From Escherichia phage vB_EcoS_fFiEco02: DNA of 44,723 nt. Shown one piece after another: positions 3,983-42,452 of the stretch; position 1 is the stretch's first letter; every line of letters starts with the position of its first letter. A program made the position numbers and the translations under genes. Below the pieces are notes generated by a model, which saw nothing but the letters and a program-made list of their open reading frames with translations, made no database searches and had not been told where the DNA came from. The DNA is taken from the sequence record NC_073316.1, one strand, 5' to 3'.

Positions 3983-4552
3983 ATGGGAATTGTTTTTGGT
4001 GTGGGTATTAACGATGTTTCACCAATAAGTTGCGGAGGGGTGCATATAGCGTCCTACGCCGTATGGAAGAACATGTTAAAGAGGTGCTACGACAAGAAAT
4101 GGCCGCAAAGAAACAGAACTTATATAGGTTGCCGCGTGTCGGACGATTGGTTGGTGTTCAGTAATTTCAAGGTCTGGTTTGATGATTTTTATGTACCTGG
4201 GTGGCAGATAGATAAGGATTTACTTAACCCGGGAAATAAGGTTTACGATGCTTCTAACTGTGTTTTCATCCCTAAATCCCTCAATACTTTCCTAACAGCC
4301 CACGACGCTCTTCGAGGCGAACACCCACTCGGCGTACATTTCCATAAACAAAAGAAAAGATTCATCGCTCAAGTATCCGTGGATGGCGTATCTGAACAAA
4401 TAGGTGCTTACGAAACCGCTCAAGAGGCACACGTAGCATGGTTTCATAGAAAAATTGAATTAGCATATGAATACAAAGGTCTTTGCGATAGCGTAGACCC
4501 ACGCCTTTTCGAAGGCGTCTTACGTAAGATTAACTCAATGAAAGAGGTTTAG
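3983..4552 (+). CDS. HNH-like homing endonuclease with C-terminal AP2-like DNA-binding domain (putative)
   Basis: paralog of 12934-13566 (shared CxDWLxFSNFxxW, GWxxDKDLL, CxFxPxxLNxFL, C-terminal G..F.....EA motif); track start 3929 lies inside the terminator hairpin so the ATG at 3983 is preferred. Confidence 0.55.
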   Translation: MGIVFGVGINDVSPISCGGVHIASYAVWKNMLKRCYDKKWPQRNRTYIGCRVSDDWLVFSNFKVWFDDFYVPGWQIDKDLLNPGNKVYDASNCVFIPKSLNTFLTAHDALRGEHPLGVHFHKQKKRFIAQVSVDGVSEQIGAYETAQEAHVAWFHRKIELAYEYKGLCDSVDPRLFEGVLRKINSMKEV

Positions 4553-5564: not shown

Positions 5565-5591
5565 TTATCATCTCCTGTTTAAGTTAACCGA

Positions 5592-5620
5592 ATAGTACCC
5601 TATTATATTGGGGTGCGCAA
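5592..5620 (-). promoter_or_regulatory. sigma70-type promoter TTGCGC-N17-TACTAT with GAATAG-N4-CTATTC palindrome
   Basis: 26 bp identical to the promoter at 15561-15589; drives 5043-5564. Confidence 0.6.
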
Positions 5621-5686: not shown

Positions 5687-5715
5687 TTGACTTTTCACTG
5701 AAAATATGATAAGCT
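5687..5715 (+). promoter_or_regulatory. promoter TTGACT-N17-TAAGCT of structured RNA A
   Basis: near-identical to 37525-37553 (TTGACTTTT.ACT.AAAATATG.TAAGCT); palindrome CTATTCGAATAG directly upstream. Confidence 0.5.
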
Positions 5716-5721
5716 CCACCT

Positions 5722-5918
5722 GAGCTTGTGAAGTATGAACAAGCGACCGCGGCGCGGGCAGGTAACGGAGCGGGACGTAAGTCCTGAGTGTAGTTACGCT
5801 GACGCGTTCGGAAGGGCCATACTCTATTGCTTGTGTAAAAAGTAACTGGTTTACTGAGATTACGCCGTTTCTATGTTTAAATGATAAGGACTAGCGCCCC
5901 GCTTTAAGGCGGGGCTTT
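5722..5918 (+). ncRNA. structured RNA element A (paralog of 37560-37794); candidate cis-acting antiterminator-like RNA or small RNA
   Basis: about 110 nt core conserved with copy B; stems GCTTGT/ACAAGC, CAG-GTAAC/GTTAC-g-CTG and GGAC-GTAA-GTCC show compensatory changes relative to B; ends at hairpin gccccgc-tttaag-gcggggc + ttt; the only ORF inside is not conserved in B. Confidence 0.5.
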
Positions 5919-5939
5919 ACTTATCGAGAAAGGGGAAAC

Positions 5940-6326: not shown

Positions 6327-6435
6327 CGACGCTGACGAGGATTTAGCTATCGACGTTCAGAACGCCGAATGTGTACGGCAACTGAGACTGAAAGTGTTCA
6401 TGTTGCAGGATTACGTGAGGAATATTCTGGAATAG
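6172..6435 (+). CDS. o-spanin (Rz1-like lipoprotein), overlapping Rz in +1 frame
   Basis: GTG start with SD gaggtga; signal peptide MKSLSTLKRLAAACALSTMLAS|C with lipobox LASC; Pro-rich mature part; starts inside 5940-6326 and extends 109 nt beyond it. Confidence 0.65.
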   Translation: MKSLSTLKRLAAACALSTMLASCSSPTPLSTPIPSPDTTMMQPPCKLAPPSSDADEDLAIDVQNAECVRQLRLKVFMLQDYVRNILE

Positions 6436-6517
6436 TTGCCTTGTATGTTGGAATAATTTATTCTTGACATGTAAATCCGGGAGGCCCGGATTCCAACGTC
6501 CAGGGGACATACTGACT

Positions 6518-15533: not shown

Positions 15534-15560
15534 AATTATTTCCTCAGTAAGTTACAGGTG

Positions 15561-15589
15561 AATAGTACCCTATTATATTGGGGTGTGCA
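15561..15589 (-). promoter_or_regulatory. sigma70-type promoter TTGCAC-N17-TACTAT with GAATAG-N4-CTATTC palindrome
   Basis: 26-bp identity with the promoter at 5592-5620; drives the - strand island. Confidence 0.6.
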
Positions 15590-15697
15590 AGTAGTGTGCT
15601 AGAATAAGTTTGCGCCTAGTGTCGCACACGAAAAGCGGGTGGTTCCCGTCTGGCGCGTCAACCTTAACCTGTAACCTCTTAACCAAAGGATTAAAGA

Positions 15698-34263: not shown

Positions 34264-34294
34264 TTGTTTCTCTCCTCTCGTTTGGTATGGGCTA

Positions 34295-34324
34295 ACTATA
34301 ATAGTGAACTATTCACGTTGTCAA
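34295..34324 (-). promoter_or_regulatory. promoter TTGACA-N18-TATAGT with GAATAG-N4-CTATTC palindrome
   Basis: divergent from the XRE gene promoter; palindrome 34300-34314. Confidence 0.55.
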
Positions 34325-34334
34325 TGGGCTTTTC

Positions 34335-34357
34335 TAAAATAATTAATATGGTACTAT
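34335..34357 (+). promoter_or_regulatory. extended -10 promoter (TGgTACTAT) for the XRE regulator gene
   Basis: TACTATTCAC as in the early promoters; weak -35; SD aaggag 9 nt before the ATG. Confidence 0.5.
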
Positions 34358-34388
34358 TCACATATCAACTGACTAAGGAGTAATTGAC

Positions 34389-34604
34389 ATGCAACCATCT
34401 GAACTAGGCATACGTGTAGAACAACGCCGTAAAGAACTCGGCATCTCTCAGCGCCGTCTGGCTGTCCTGGCCGGCGTTTCCCAGGGCGCGATTAACCAGC
34501 TGGCACTCGGCGTAACTCAGGACGTCCGCCCGGCAACGCTGTTTAAACTGGCGGAAGTGCTGGAAGTAGACGCCAAGTGGCTGGCGTTCGGTGAAGGGGC
34601 TTAA
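34389..34604 (+). CDS. XRE-family (Cro/CI-type) HTH transcriptional regulator
   Basis: 71 aa; HTH signature ELGISQRRLAVLAGVSQGAINQLALG; opposite orientation to flanking replication genes. Confidence 0.75.
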   Translation: MQPSELGIRVEQRRKELGISQRRLAVLAGVSQGAINQLALGVTQDVRPATLFKLAEVLEVDAKWLAFGEGA

Positions 34605-36889: not shown

Positions 36890-36947
36890 GTTGTATTTCC
36901 TTCAGCAAGTAATTTAGCCTCGGCGTTCACCGCGTCGGGGCTTTCTT

Positions 36948-37238
36948 TTATCTTTTAGCCAGACATTCCATCAAATGCTCGTACTTACGGTAATAATCTA
37001 CGACAATCTCATCACCGAAATACTGATACACGTACGCTAAGTGGTCAGAGACATCGATGGAAGCCGACATTGCGCTGAGGCTTCTTAGACTAATCAACTG
37101 CAATTCTTCTGTAACGCAAAACGGCGAATATGAGTCCAGTTTACAGGAAACGTTAAAACACAACGCGTATTCACCTTGCACTAAATAAACCATATAAGCA
37201 TTGTCGTTCTCTTTATCGTGGAAAATTACACCTTTCAT
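36948..37238 (-). CDS. hypothetical protein
   Basis: 96 aa, second gene of the leftward operon. Confidence 0.45.
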   Translation of the reverse strand: MKGVIFHDKENDNAYMVYLVQGEYALCFNVSCKLDSYSPFCVTEELQLISLRSLSAMSASIDVSDHLAYVYQYFGDEIVVDYYRKYEHLMECLAKR

Positions 37239-37417
37239 TTCACGTTCTCCTTAATCCACGCTTCAACTTTATTGCGGTCAAATGTCCCTGGTAAACGGCG
37301 GCCCATAACCTTAATACAGCAATCCGGGAATTTGCCACTGCGCAACCAGTTATTAATTGTCTGACGTGTCACCCCGATACGTTCAGCTACTTCATTCTGG
37401 GTCATGTAACGCTGCAT
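37235..37417 (-). CDS. small HTH DNA-binding protein (AlpA/excisionase-like fold)
   Basis: MTQNEVAERIGVTRQTINNWLRSGKFP; ATG at 37417 with SD aggaga; first gene of the leftward operon. Confidence 0.55.
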   Translation of the reverse strand: MQRYMTQNEVAERIGVTRQTINNWLRSGKFPDCCIKVMGRRLPGTFDRNKVEAWIKENVK

Positions 37418-37448
37418 TTTTATATCTCCTGTTTGTTTAGTGGAACCG

Positions 37449-37477
37449 AGTATAGGATAGCGGGAATGTAAAAGCAA
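37449..37477 (-). promoter_or_regulatory. promoter TTGCTT-N17-TATACT for the leftward replication operon
   Basis: hexamers at correct spacing about 30 nt upstream of the HTH gene start. Confidence 0.45.
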
Positions 37478-37524
37478 CCAAAACTGAACACAAAGTTACT
37501 AAGATGCAAAAGATGCTACTGGTA

Positions 37525-37553
37525 TTGACTTTTACTTAAAAATATGCTAAGCT
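37525..37553 (+). promoter_or_regulatory. promoter TTGACT-N17-TAAGCT of structured RNA B
   Basis: paralog of 5687-5715. Confidence 0.5.
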
Positions 37554-37559
37554 TCACTG

Positions 37560-37794
37560 AGCTTGTGAGATATCGCAAGCGACCGCGGAGCGGCAGGGAA
37601 CGCAACGCGTGCCATTAGGCACTTGAGTGTAGTTCCGCTGGCGCTTTCGGAAGGGCCAAAGTCTATTGTTAATCCCGCCTAAATACCCAAGTCACTGATA
37701 ATTAAAAGTTTATATAGTTGCCGTAAGCAAGGTAGAGAGTACTTCACTCCGCTGGGGTGGGCTAACGCCCACCCACTGCGTTGCGTACTCTTTT
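37560..37794 (+). ncRNA. structured RNA element B (paralog of 5722-5918)
   Basis: conserved core; stems GCTTG/CAAGC, CAG-GGAAC/GTTCC-g-CTG, GTGCC-ATTA-GGCAC; ends in a long hairpin + tctttt. Confidence 0.5.
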
Positions 37795-37833
37795 AAGAAA
37801 CGAAAGAATCACAACGGCAACGTAACTATTTTC

Positions 37834-37862
37834 TTGCACACCCCAACATAATAGGATACTAT
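37834..37862 (+). promoter_or_regulatory. early promoter TTGCAC-N17-TACTAT with AATAG-N4-CTATTC palindrome
   Basis: consensus-like hexamers; conserved leader …ATCGAAACGAGA… shared with 39344 and 42424 promoters. Confidence 0.6.
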
Positions 37863-37896
37863 TCACTTATCGAAACGAGACAGATGAGTGAGGGTT

Positions 37897-38085
37897 ATGT
37901 TTAGGAAGGGTCAGTTGGTTAAAGCCGTAGATTATTATTATAGTATTGTTGAAACAGAGTCTGTCGTTTTTCCCGGAACTTATAGGGTGCGTTTTCTCGT
38001 GAAAAGATTAGGTGCGGTAGATTGGTTCCGGGAAGACGAGCTAACACTCATCGGCAACAATTTTAAATTCAAAGGGGCGAAGTGA
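37897..38085 (+). CDS. hypothetical early protein
   Basis: 62 aa from the ATG at 37897. Confidence 0.4.
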   Translation: MFRKGQLVKAVDYYYSIVETESVVFPGTYRVRFLVKRLGAVDWFREDELTLIGNNFKFKGAK

Positions 38086-39187: not shown

Positions 39188-39229
39188 TGTTATATTGTAA
39201 CAATAGTTTGGGATTTTACTGAGTGACTT

Positions 39230-39258
39230 ACGCTGCTACACCGCAGCGTATCATTTTT
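39230..39258 (+). terminator. rho-independent terminator
   Basis: hairpin acgctgc-tacacc-gcagcgt + atcattttt. Confidence 0.55.
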
Positions 39259-39343
39259 CTCATTTTTGTTCTATTTCACCAAACGCAACAATCGAAGCGA
39301 CTATTGCAGGAGATGCAACGATACAAACACCAATAAAATTTAC

Positions 39344-39372
39344 TTGCACACTGGGATAGAATAGGCTACTAT
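39344..39372 (+). promoter_or_regulatory. early promoter TTGCAC-N17-TACTAT with GAATAG-N4-CTATTC palindrome
   Basis: palindrome 39359-39374; leader contains ACGAGAGGAGAG. Confidence 0.6.
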
Positions 39373-39403
39373 TCATTTACACGAACGAGAGGAGAGACGG
39401 AAT

Positions 39404-39592: not shown

Positions 39593-40239
39593 GTAACAAA
39601 AACGAAGTATTCGAGTACCTGATTGACCAGTTACGGCGGCAGCTACCGGTCGTAGATGTTATGGGTGAGATTGAACGGTGGAGTATCGACCGTAGTATCG
39701 CGGGTCGCGGTAACTATACCGACGAGGAAAACGCCATAATCGATGCTTACATCGGCCTGGAGCACAACCCGTACAAGCAACAGTGCGAAGGCCTGGCCCA
39801 TGAAGTGCTGTCACTTAAGAATCAGTTACGTGATGCGTCGGCGCTGGTGGCTGAGTTACAGAAAGAACTTGATATCGCCAATAGCACCGTCGTTCGTTTG
39901 CGTAAAGAGATAGCTAAGTCTACCGGTGACATTGGAGAATACATCGATGCCATGGAGCAATCCGGTTGCTGCAAAGAAGATACTCAGTACAACGCCTGGA
40001 GGCCGCATTATGGTGCGCGACAACCTGTGCCGGATGGGACTATGGTATTTATCCGGTATCGCAACGGGGAGGAGCCGAAACACAGTGTAGCAGCAGAAAA
40101 GCGGTCGTGGATTTGGGATGGAACATACGCAGACATAGTGGAATACAAGATTGACACACAGGAATGTGAACATGACTATCGTTTGGTTCTGTGGTGTAAC
40201 GACTTACAGCAGTGCTCTAAATGCGGGGTGATCAAATGA
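39589..40239 (+). CDS. hypothetical early protein (coiled-coil N-terminal, Cys/Trp-rich C-terminal)
   Basis: 216 aa; ATGA overlap with the upstream gene. Confidence 0.5.
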   Translation: MSNKNEVFEYLIDQLRRQLPVVDVMGEIERWSIDRSIAGRGNYTDEENAIIDAYIGLEHNPYKQQCEGLAHEVLSLKNQLRDASALVAELQKELDIANSTVVRLRKEIAKSTGDIGEYIDAMEQSGCCKEDTQYNAWRPHYGARQPVPDGTMVFIRYRNGEEPKHSVAAEKRSWIWDGTYADIVEYKIDTQECEHDYRLVLWCNDLQQCSKCGVIK

Positions 40240-40499
40240 CCAGCATCTTATTTATCTGGGTATTGTCCGCAGGCCAGATGCAACTAGCGGCATCAGAAAC
40301 GTTTTATTCGATGGAGGCGTGCCAGTCAGCGGCACGCGCCGCAGAGAACGCGCACTTTCTGTTTCAGGGTGACAAGCCCAACGACTCAGAGGTACGCGCC
40401 GCAGAGAACGCGCACTTTCTGTTTCAGGGTGACAAGCCCAACGACTCAGAGGTACGCGCTATCTGCTCGCCTAAGCGACTTGGTAAACAGGAGAAGTGA
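40236..40499 (+). CDS. small protein with N-terminal hydrophobic segment and internal 20-aa tandem duplication
   Basis: MTSILFIWVLSAGQMQLAAS…; AAENAHFLFQGDKPNDSEVR repeated twice. Confidence 0.45.
   Translation: MTSILFIWVLSAGQMQLAASETFYSMEACQSAARAAENAHFLFQGDKPNDSEVRAAENAHFLFQGDKPNDSEVRAICSPKRLGKQEK
40334..40453 (+). repeat. perfect 60-bp tandem duplication (2 copies, plus 7-bp partial third)
   Basis: acgcgccgcagagaacgcgcactttctgtttcagggtgacaagcccaacgactcagaggt repeated head-to-tail. Confidence 0.9.
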
Positions 40500-42304: not shown

Positions 42305-42370
42305 CACCTGAGACTAATCCGACGATACTTAAATCACCTCCTGTTCCATCCCTCTGCTCTCCAGTTTTAT

Positions 42371-42401
42371 CCCGGCCCTGACCCAGCCGGGATTTTTTTT
42401 T
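42371..42401 (+). terminator. strong rho-independent terminator after the lysis cassette
   Basis: hairpin cccggc-cctgaccca-gccggg followed by nine T. Confidence 0.7.
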
Positions 42402-42423
42402 ATCTATTTTCTGCAATGACTAG

Positions 42424-42452
42424 TTGACTATTAACATCGACCCTATTATATT
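42424..42452 (+). promoter_or_regulatory. promoter TTGACT-N17-TATATT with conserved early leader
   Basis: leader …ATCGACAACGAGAGGAGAG… as in the other early promoters. Confidence 0.5.

Follow-up and report, generated by a model that had tools for sequence, protein, structure and literature searches.

A divergent control region in Escherichia phage vB_EcoS_fFiEco02 carries one of two copies of a conserved leader RNA, possibly an antiterminator

In the genome of Escherichia phage vB_EcoS_fFiEco02 (NC_073316.1), about 480 non-coding nucleotides (nt) at 37418-37896 separate the last leftward gene (HTH_17) from the first rightward early gene (start 37897), which raises the question of whether this gap is spacer DNA or a point at which transcription of the phage is controlled. 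The window, i.e., the whole stretch of 44,723 nt (44.7 kb) that was analyzed, is a complete genome and belongs to a virulent siphovirus (genus Kagunavirus, subfamily Guernseyvirinae); its closest relative is Escherichia phage vB_EcoS_fPoEco01 (99.4-99.7% identity). Genes on the plus strand fall into two blocks, and the minus strand carries the replication module (24.6-37.4 kb). Rightward block 1 starts at ~37.9 kb with small early genes, continues through holins, endolysin, terminase, portal and head genes and wraps to ~5.0 kb, and rightward block 2, with the spanin, scaffold, capsid and tail genes, covers 5.9-24.5 kb. The gap contains a structured RNA element, RNA-B, behind its promoter P_B. 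A paralogous element, RNA-A with its promoter P_A, spans 5687-5915 and precedes the spanin gene, where the second rightward block, the one with the structural genes, begins. No open reading frame (ORF) of more than 34 aa lies within 37478-37887, and no tRNA or tmRNA was found.

The sequence gives good support to the view that 37418-37896 is a divergent control hub, flanked by the leftward replication genes on one side and by the rightward genes for early functions, lysis and packaging on the other. It is read as a control point rather than a spacer because a repeated operator lies over the early -10 element, the back-to-back promoters are conserved and the RNA fold is kept by compensatory changes. 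The initial annotation had come to the same view of the gap and had placed in it a leftward promoter at 37449-37477, a rightward promoter for RNA-B at 37525 and an early promoter with an operator-like palindrome at 37834-37862. When the sequence was re-read, all these promoters, RNA-B and the palindrome were present where they had been placed (Table 1). The layout holds as well, in that RNA-B runs towards the early genes and its hairpin ends just 5' of the second promoter. Three findings go beyond that annotation: the RNA core belongs to a family that also occurs in Jerseyvirus, one copy stands at the head of each rightward block, and the related phages K1H and SETP7 carry another RNA module at the equivalent site.

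Table 1. Coordinates of the control region at 37418-37896, its paralogous counterpart ahead of the spanin gene and associated genes. Promoters, operator and RNA elements are predictions; positions refer to the window.
Feature	Position	Strand	Evidence or remark
P_A, paralogous promoter	5687..5715	+	29-nt pattern match
RNA-A core, paralogue of RNA-B with the same fold	5722..5830	+	covariance model 130.9 bits
RNA-A 3' hairpin GCCCCGC-UUUAA-GGCGGGGC, then UUUACUUAU	5896..5915	+	terminator scan; 24 nt before spanin ATG (5940)
XRE/DicA-like repressor gene	34389..34604	+	Pfam HTH_3 2.3e-12; NCBIfam DicA
HTH_17 (excisionase-family) DNA-binding protein gene, 60 aa, first gene of leftward unit	37235..37417	-	Pfam HTH_17 1.6e-8; PHROG 66 'excisionase and transcriptional regulator'
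Predicted leftward sigma-70 promoter TTGCTT-17-TATACT	37449..37477 (37477->37449)	-	sequence; conserved hexamers
AT-rich upstream region of P_B with direct repeat AAGATGC-AA-AAGATGC	37501..37516	+	kept in all B-type loci, even with a different left-hand gene
P_B promoter TTGACT-17-TAAGCT, extended -10 TG (TGcTAAGCT)	37525..37553	+	29-nt pattern; conserved in IMG/VR relatives
RNA-B core: P1 hairpin 37561-37580, interrupted P2 helix 37583-37650, conserved tail GGAAGGGCCAAAGUCUAUUG	37559..37669	+	covariance model 101.8 bits, E = 2.6e-22
RNA-B linker, less conserved	37670..37733	+	differs from RNA-A; kept in K1H, where the core is replaced
RNA-B 3' hairpin, long, interrupted, ~22 bp, ending UUUU	37734..37794	+	-32.6 kcal/mol, z = -5.8
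Conserved upstream block of early promoter, AACTATT half-site 37824-37830	37800..37833	+	near-identical in all B-site variants including K1H
Early promoter TTGCAC-17-TACTAT	37834..37862	+	31-nt block repeated at 5590-5620 (-) and 15560-15590 (-)
Operator-like palindrome AATAG-N4-CTATT (AATAGGATACTATT), overlaps early -10	37850..37863		repeated set
First early gene, 62 aa, PHROG 12538, no function annotated	37897..38085	+	gene map, PHROG match

RNA-A and RNA-B have the promoter and ~110 nt in common and then diverge, the core being conserved far more than the linker. In the fold of both copies, a 2-nt joint connects a 5' hairpin (P1) to a long, interrupted helix (P2), and the predicted transcript start coincides with the beginning of P1. 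The internal loops of P2 (ACGGAGC and UGAGUGUAG) are conserved, as is the tail that follows P2 (GGAAGGGCCA.A.UCUAUUG), which is single-stranded and contains GGA. The fold of the RNA-B core stands out from shuffled controls (z = -4.4) and, together with the paralogue at 5722-5830, this confirms the RNA element first annotated in the gap. Kagunavirus A, Kagunavirus B and Jerseyvirus RNAs show equal architecture when each is folded alone. In an alignment of 36 Kagunavirus and Jerseyvirus sequences, 95.3% of the cells are paired compared to 30-37% with slid partners and 16 of the 29 pairs have changed on both sides, numbers that are somewhat inflated by the fitting of this alignment to the model. 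An alignment made with MAFFT only provides an independent check and gives 96% pairing and four doubly changed pairs. Moreover, two tandem G-U pairs at the base of P2 are invariant, for which the opposite strand would give A·C mismatches. Hence, the selected molecule is the plus-strand RNA. The sequence comparison thus indicates that the RNA fold is maintained by compensatory substitutions, i.e., under selection, and that RNA-A and RNA-B are members of a previously undescribed, covariation-supported RNA family.

Other pairings were considered and discarded. Minimum-free-energy folding of RNA-A proposed a pseudoknot in which the tail (CAUACU) pairs with the P1 loop (AGUAUG); the tails CAUAGU, CAUAUU and CAUAGG are uncompensated and the pseudoknot is absent in RNA-B. 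A local hairpin at the base of P2 (CCGC-GGN-GCGG) was set aside in favor of helix P2b, in which three pair types (C-G, A-U, U-A) occur at one position. This local hairpin has one compensatory change (in L015), reaches 5 bp in types C/D and may represent a co-transcriptional intermediate. A riboswitch-style competition between antiterminator and terminator was rejected, as no convincing alternative pairing between core and 3' hairpin was found in either copy.

The distribution of the family was assessed by pattern scans of IMG/VR and metagenomes, followed by a model built from the matches. Around 30 distinct RNA versions were recovered, among them several variants of the B copy and, from Jerseyvirus, a strongly diverged version located where RNA-A lies (38.6 bits on the Kagunavirus model R1). 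The family is confined to Kagunavirus (A copy, with a B copy in a subset) and Jerseyvirus (A copy only). A survey of 5,426 E. coli genomes gave no family match, and among 185,579 species genomes the family was found only on two small contaminant-like contigs. Metagenomes yielded no further variants, their matches lying mostly on contigs of Kagunavirus size (~44 kb). The family was not detected in Cornellvirus Shemara or at the B site of Jerseyvirus SETP7, even with filters off, and models R1 and R2 find nothing in HK022. Rfam 15 returned no match in the whole window at gathering thresholds; at E <= 10, both RNA loci gave weak matches (E >= 1) far below the gathering scores. In the literature, neither a description of the RNA-A/RNA-B family nor a transcript map for the Kagunavirus and Jerseyvirus relatives was found.

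K1H (L152, 3870-4240) has, in place of the core at its B site, a structured RNA of another kind that follows a different strong sigma-70 promoter, and the GUCUAUU motif, the linker, the long 3' hairpin and the early promoter are kept. The B site of SETP7 (L061, 36440-36830) likewise has a different strong sigma-70 promoter and a different RNA, together with a CUCUAUU motif and an operator-controlled early promoter. The B site is thus modular across the Guernseyvirinae subfamily. In the records of SETP7 (L061, 5775-5894) and Bas70/72/75, 'hypothetical protein' coding sequences (CDSs) are annotated over the RNA-A homologue and are probably false gene calls. The spanin leader of Cornellvirus Shemara (L062, 6985-7150) has its own promoter (TGTATAAT), a structured RNA and a AUAGUCUAUU motif. 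This RNA shows a similar inner helix (CAGGGAC...GUCCCUG) with a GUAA loop and scores 6 bits only on the family model; going by these sequence features, it may be a very distant relative of RNA-A and RNA-B.

The 29-nt pattern that defines P_A and P_B has exactly two matches in the window, at 5687 and 37525, where 0.00 are expected. Like the other promoters described here, P_A and P_B are predictions backed by conservation. Their cores are without the operator palindrome; a palindrome CTATTCGAATAG adjoins the -35 element of P_A. The exact P_A/P_B promoter consensus is also present on a 6.7-kb IMG/VR contig (L060, 4302-4462), where it is followed by unrelated sequence. Furthermore, the leader of the scaffold gene (6428-6510; L062, 8290-8375) contains a hairpin, AAUCCGGG-AGG-CCCGGAUU, with compensatory changes in Cornellvirus, and the putative promoter of this leader has GAATAGTTG(A/C)C in common with P_A. 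This common motif suggests an upstream site for a regulator common to late promoters.

The initial annotation had RNA-B end in a terminator. The 3' hairpin itself is real, spans ~60 nt and is far more stable than expected by chance according to the z-score in Table 1. Only four U follow (37791-37794), most of which are paired within the predicted stem, and the hairpin fails a simple terminator scan. Its role as a terminator is thus doubtful; according to the folding model, it might be a weak non-canonical terminator or an element that defines or stabilizes the RNA 3' end. For the RNA-A 3' hairpin, the label is plausible from sequence: its 8-bp stem with UUUACUUAU passes the scan, and it is the first terminator-like site among those listed for 1-20 kb. 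The 24 nt between this hairpin and the spanin ATG leave no room for a promoter, and hence spanin expression would depend entirely on read-through by polymerases that start at P_A or farther upstream. In Jerseyvirus, the A hairpin is kept in position with compensatory changes and has almost no U-tract (UUAGCGUAU). In types C/D, the RNA-B 3' hairpin is replaced by a short GGUGCC-UUCG-GGCACC. The 3' part of RNA-B in other Kagunaviruses contains a (CTCA)n microsatellite of 4-7 units (L046 ~4340-4370, L058, L050), which differs in copy number among isolates and precedes the GGUGCC-UUCG-GGCACC hairpin in some B variants.

Within the two blocks, plus-strand hairpins with U-tracts are located at 2756 (after portal), 5018, 8287 (after capsid), 13571, 39229 and ~42370. 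The last one, after the endolysin gene (~42366-42452), is a very strong terminator with an 8-bp stem, a 9-nt loop and nine T, and its loop length hid it from the scan. A TTGACT-17-TATATT sequence lies directly 3' of it.

What could a structured RNA at the head of each rightward block do? Mutations in the zinc-binding domain of the RNA polymerase beta' subunit (rpoC) abolish the activity of the put RNAs, which offer a close comparison. HK022 putL and putR are nascent two-stem RNAs that bind the polymerase that made them and suppress pausing and termination over many kilobases; putL starts at the transcript 5' end, and HK022 has put where lambda has nut (PMC9378689). We put the probability that RNA-A and RNA-B are put-like RNAs, which act in cis to make transcripts from their own promoters resistant to termination, at about 40%. 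The likeness extends to several levels: put occurs twice per genome in similar form, heads an operon each time behind a major promoter of the host polymerase, has two stems joined by 1-2 unpaired bases with conserved bulges in the second stem, is followed by terminators downstream and is exchanged for other modules at equivalent positions in relatives (PMC9378689). Correspondingly, two promoter-proximal stem-loops are found here in two copies (5722 and 37559) that head two operons behind identical promoters.

Transcription, polymerase binding and read-through would, we infer, proceed as follows. Host sigma-70 RNA polymerase would start at P_B ~6 nt before P1, and the nascent RNA would fold on emergence and stay with its own polymerase in the manner of HK022 put RNA. 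The RNA-bearing polymerase would resist pausing and termination, so that a polymerase from P_B could read through the RNA-B 3' hairpin and then through the plus-strand terminators at 39229, ~42370, 2756 and 5018. RNA-A would do likewise for those at 5896, 8287 and 13571. The operator-bearing promoters (37834, 39346, 5620, 15590 and those of the replication module) would provide early expression and later be silenced by the XRE repressor, while P_A and P_B with their operator-free cores would keep driving both rightward blocks late in infection.

The strongest clue for put-like action is position, since each rightward block starts with one promoter-plus-RNA module. The two copies have a promoter and a 110-nt core in common, and P1 sits at the predicted transcript start. 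The proposal also draws on the read-through of the RNA-A hairpin that spanin needs, on the strong plus-strand terminators within the blocks and on compensatory changes that keep the fold across Kagunavirus and Jerseyvirus. In addition, relatives carry other structured RNAs at the B site, which resembles the relation of put to nut in HK022 and lambda. A protein antiterminator, on the other hand, was not recognizable among the proteins scanned (part of the proteome, including the HTH protein and 12 early proteins with no assigned function), which supports an RNA-based mechanism.

Several observations weigh against put-like action. The RNA is unlike put in sequence and structure, and homology to put is rejected, as searches in both directions were empty: a put model derived from putL and putR (R3) picks up the two HK022 sites at E ~1e-21 but has no match in the window at E <= 10, and its best score over RNA-B when filters are switched off is 4.2 bits on the wrong strand. 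A similarity between putL stem II and P2 (CGCGGCG..GG..CAGG..AACGG) was dismissed as chance, since the stretch forms a loop in put and a helix strand here. RNA-A and RNA-B also differ from put in the length of the core (~110 nt vs ~70 nt) and in residing in a virulent siphovirus rather than a lambdoid prophage; their activity is proposed by analogy. Promoter-like sites of their own (37834, 39346, 42424 and ~6437) precede most of the gene groups downstream, and hence processive antitermination would not be strictly required. In the conAn system, long stems make terminators resist processive antitermination (PMC10325885); by this analogy, the unusually long RNA-B stem fits a discrete RNA better. 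The near-absence of a U-tract in the hairpin after the Jerseyvirus RNA-A also weighs against put-like action. Finally, the B sites of K1H and SETP7 are without the core, which is thus dispensable there; this replacement either makes an essential role less likely or mirrors the exchange of put and nut modules in lambdoid phages. The wider claim, that the fold is an independently evolved second class of RNA-only processive antiterminator in virulent Guernseyvirinae, an analogue of put without homology, and that the RNAs of K1H, Jerseyvirus and Cornellvirus are interchangeable modules of like kind, seems rather unlikely to us at present.

The arrangement of promoter, structured RNA and GC-rich 3' hairpin is also the classic layout of a small RNA gene. 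RNA-A and RNA-B might be abundant stand-alone RNAs of ~195 and ~235 nt, made from their own strong constitutive promoters and framed by a protective 5' hairpin and a 3' hairpin, that act in trans by sequestering a host protein or by base-pairing with host or phage mRNAs, the two copies raising the dose. The long RNA-B hairpin favors a defined 3' end, an independent promoter follows immediately after RNA-B, the core is much better conserved than the linker and the single-stranded tail with GGA is conserved. We regard this as a serious alternative, though less likely than put-like action. The RNA-A hairpin lies so close to the spanin start, with no promoter between, that read-through must occur, and the U-tracts are weak (4 U in B, UUAGCGUAU in Jerseyvirus A). 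No complementary target or protein partner was identified, and it would be a coincidence that both rightward blocks start with a copy.

The put-like proposal offers no temporal control, which a phage protein could provide. The RNA might be bound in the manner of N and nut, or the promoter spacer and initial transcribed region might load a Q/AlpA-like protein, so that synthesis of this elongation factor, e.g., the adjacent HTH_17 protein or a small early protein, would time read-through. A constitutive promoter, a terminator ~200 nt on and late genes beyond reproduce the lambda PR'-tR' layout, the promoter spacer is conserved between both copies, an excisionase-family HTH gene adjoins P_B and many early proteins have no assigned function. 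However, there was no match to the Q, N or AlpA families among the proteins scanned, including the HTH_17 protein as searched in Pfam, PHROG and PDB sequences, and no match to boxA GCTCTTTAACAA at <=3 mismatches inside 5687-5930 or 37525-37800. A -10-like pause sequence, AAGTAT, occurs in RNA-A within the loop of P1, where RNA-B has GAGATATC and Jerseyvirus a UUC loop. Furthermore, Q-type systems need no conserved RNA fold, yet the fold here is under selection. We regard a loading site for a phage factor as unlikely, yet as a serious rival to the put-like proposal. Lambda PR'-6S RNA-tR' with Q, and Pseudomonas AlpA, likewise combine a strong constitutive promoter with a short non-coding transcript that runs to a hairpin and late genes directly beyond, but here the RNA fold itself is selected and no Q/AlpA homologue was found among the proteins scanned. 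Lambda nutL and nutR with N and Nus factors are paired RNA sites heading two operons, but no boxA-like sequence or small boxB-type hairpin is seen here, nor an N-like protein among those scanned. The conAn system of Gram-positive conjugative plasmids, compared here by description only (PMC8191782), resembles the put-like proposal in placing processive antitermination at the start of a long mobile-element operon and differs in having two components and belonging to a different phylum.

Could the fold be a 5'-leader device with no effect on polymerase? It might protect the transcript from RNase E or Rho or be a processing site, or the P_B-RNA-hairpin cassette might insulate the early promoter. 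P1 lies at the extreme 5' end, the untranslated leaders of ~220-340 nt would otherwise be Rho targets, and the B site of relatives holds varied structured modules. The sequence-conserved internal loops, tandem G-U pairs and single-stranded tail exceed what stability needs, however, and an elaborate core is retained at two loci, making this explanation quite improbable. Least credible is that the transcripts, made from strong promoters near the primase-helicase gene, prime replication or activate an origin (ColE1 RNA II-like or T7-origin-like): RNA-B lies beside the replication module, has a strong promoter and a conserved tail rich in G and is preceded by AT-rich DNA with repeats, but RNA-A is located among morphogenesis genes, Jerseyvirus has the A copy only, no AT-rich unwinding region or iterons lie downstream, and each copy is followed by a hairpin and then a gene or promoter.

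The second promoter class of the control region is defined by the early promoter and its palindrome. The 31-nt early-promoter block occurs three times in the window compared to 0 expected, each time with a ribosome-binding site and gene start within ~25-35 nt, and a looser fourth copy of TTGCAC-17-TACTAT is present at 39346. The palindrome AATAG-N4-CTATT occurs seven times exactly (5591, 15561, 27954, 31682, 34300, 37850 and 39360) and 12 times at <=1 mismatch, where 1.15 occurrences are expected; near matches include 34345, 2776, 19578 and 42419. The half-site AACTATT occurs 13 times vs 5.7 expected. Most exact copies lie in promoter regions among those checked (-10 or spacer), including near-consensus minus-strand promoters of the replication module. 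The palindrome first annotated as operator-like is thus, going by sequence, apparently one site of a genome-wide regulon. At 39229-39374, an intrinsic terminator (39229-39250) is followed by a promoter with its own palindrome (39346-39374), and the small early genes are split into two units.

The palindrome copies at 34300 and 34345 adjoin the XRE gene (34389-34604), and because two operators lie at its own gene, the XRE protein is a better operator candidate than HTH_17. The phage XRE repressor probably binds the palindrome. The divergent promoter region before the XRE gene (34264-34388) contains the two palindromes and a near-consensus leftward promoter, TTGACA-18-TATAGT (34324->34295), an arrangement that resembles a miniature immunity region, in a virulent phage. 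As in Cro/CI-type control, the 14-bp palindrome overlaps the early -10 and has copies beside the repressor's own gene; unlike in Cro/CI-type control, the sites are spread across ~10 promoters of a virulent phage genome rather than one immunity region, and binding is predicted from sequence. The same AATAG-N4-CTATT motif was reported for a related phage by PHIRE as a phage-polymerase promoter (PMC9825357). No RNA polymerase gene is listed in the annotation of fPoEco01.

The leftward promoter is weak by consensus, with 8/12 matches and a score under the threshold of the consensus scan. In the relative L058, its spacer has diverged, yet both hexamers and the 17-nt spacing are unchanged, which is the pattern expected for a real promoter. 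The ribosome-binding site and ATG (37417) of the HTH gene follow ~24 nt downstream of it.

Elsewhere in the window, a 60-bp tandem duplication (40326-40445, 97% identical) inside ORF 40221-40499 doubles a 20-aa segment of a PHROG 3766 protein. A strong plus-strand terminator at 36916-36942, between ORF 36948-37238 and the primase gene, faces antisense (rightward) transcription across the replication genes and is no barrier to the leftward operon.

Taken together, the reading of 37418-37896 as a control point is sound, and a mechanism is proposed for it: a promoter-proximal regulatory leader RNA, possibly an antiterminator. To our knowledge, RNA-only control of RNA polymerase elongation in phages has essentially one example, HK022 put. 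If the proposal is true, a second, unrelated fold with the job of put would show that this solution is recurrent and would provide a new RNA-polymerase interface to study. The analysis also points to likely mis-annotations, namely 'hypothetical protein' CDSs that lie on the RNA and 'phage RNA polymerase promoters' that would really be operator sites. Whatever the mechanism, RNA-A and RNA-B represent a new covariation-supported RNA family in a subfamily (Kagunavirus, Jerseyvirus) isolated partly with phage therapy in mind, and the operator set together with the two promoter classes provides a testable model of early-to-late switching for phages without their own polymerase.

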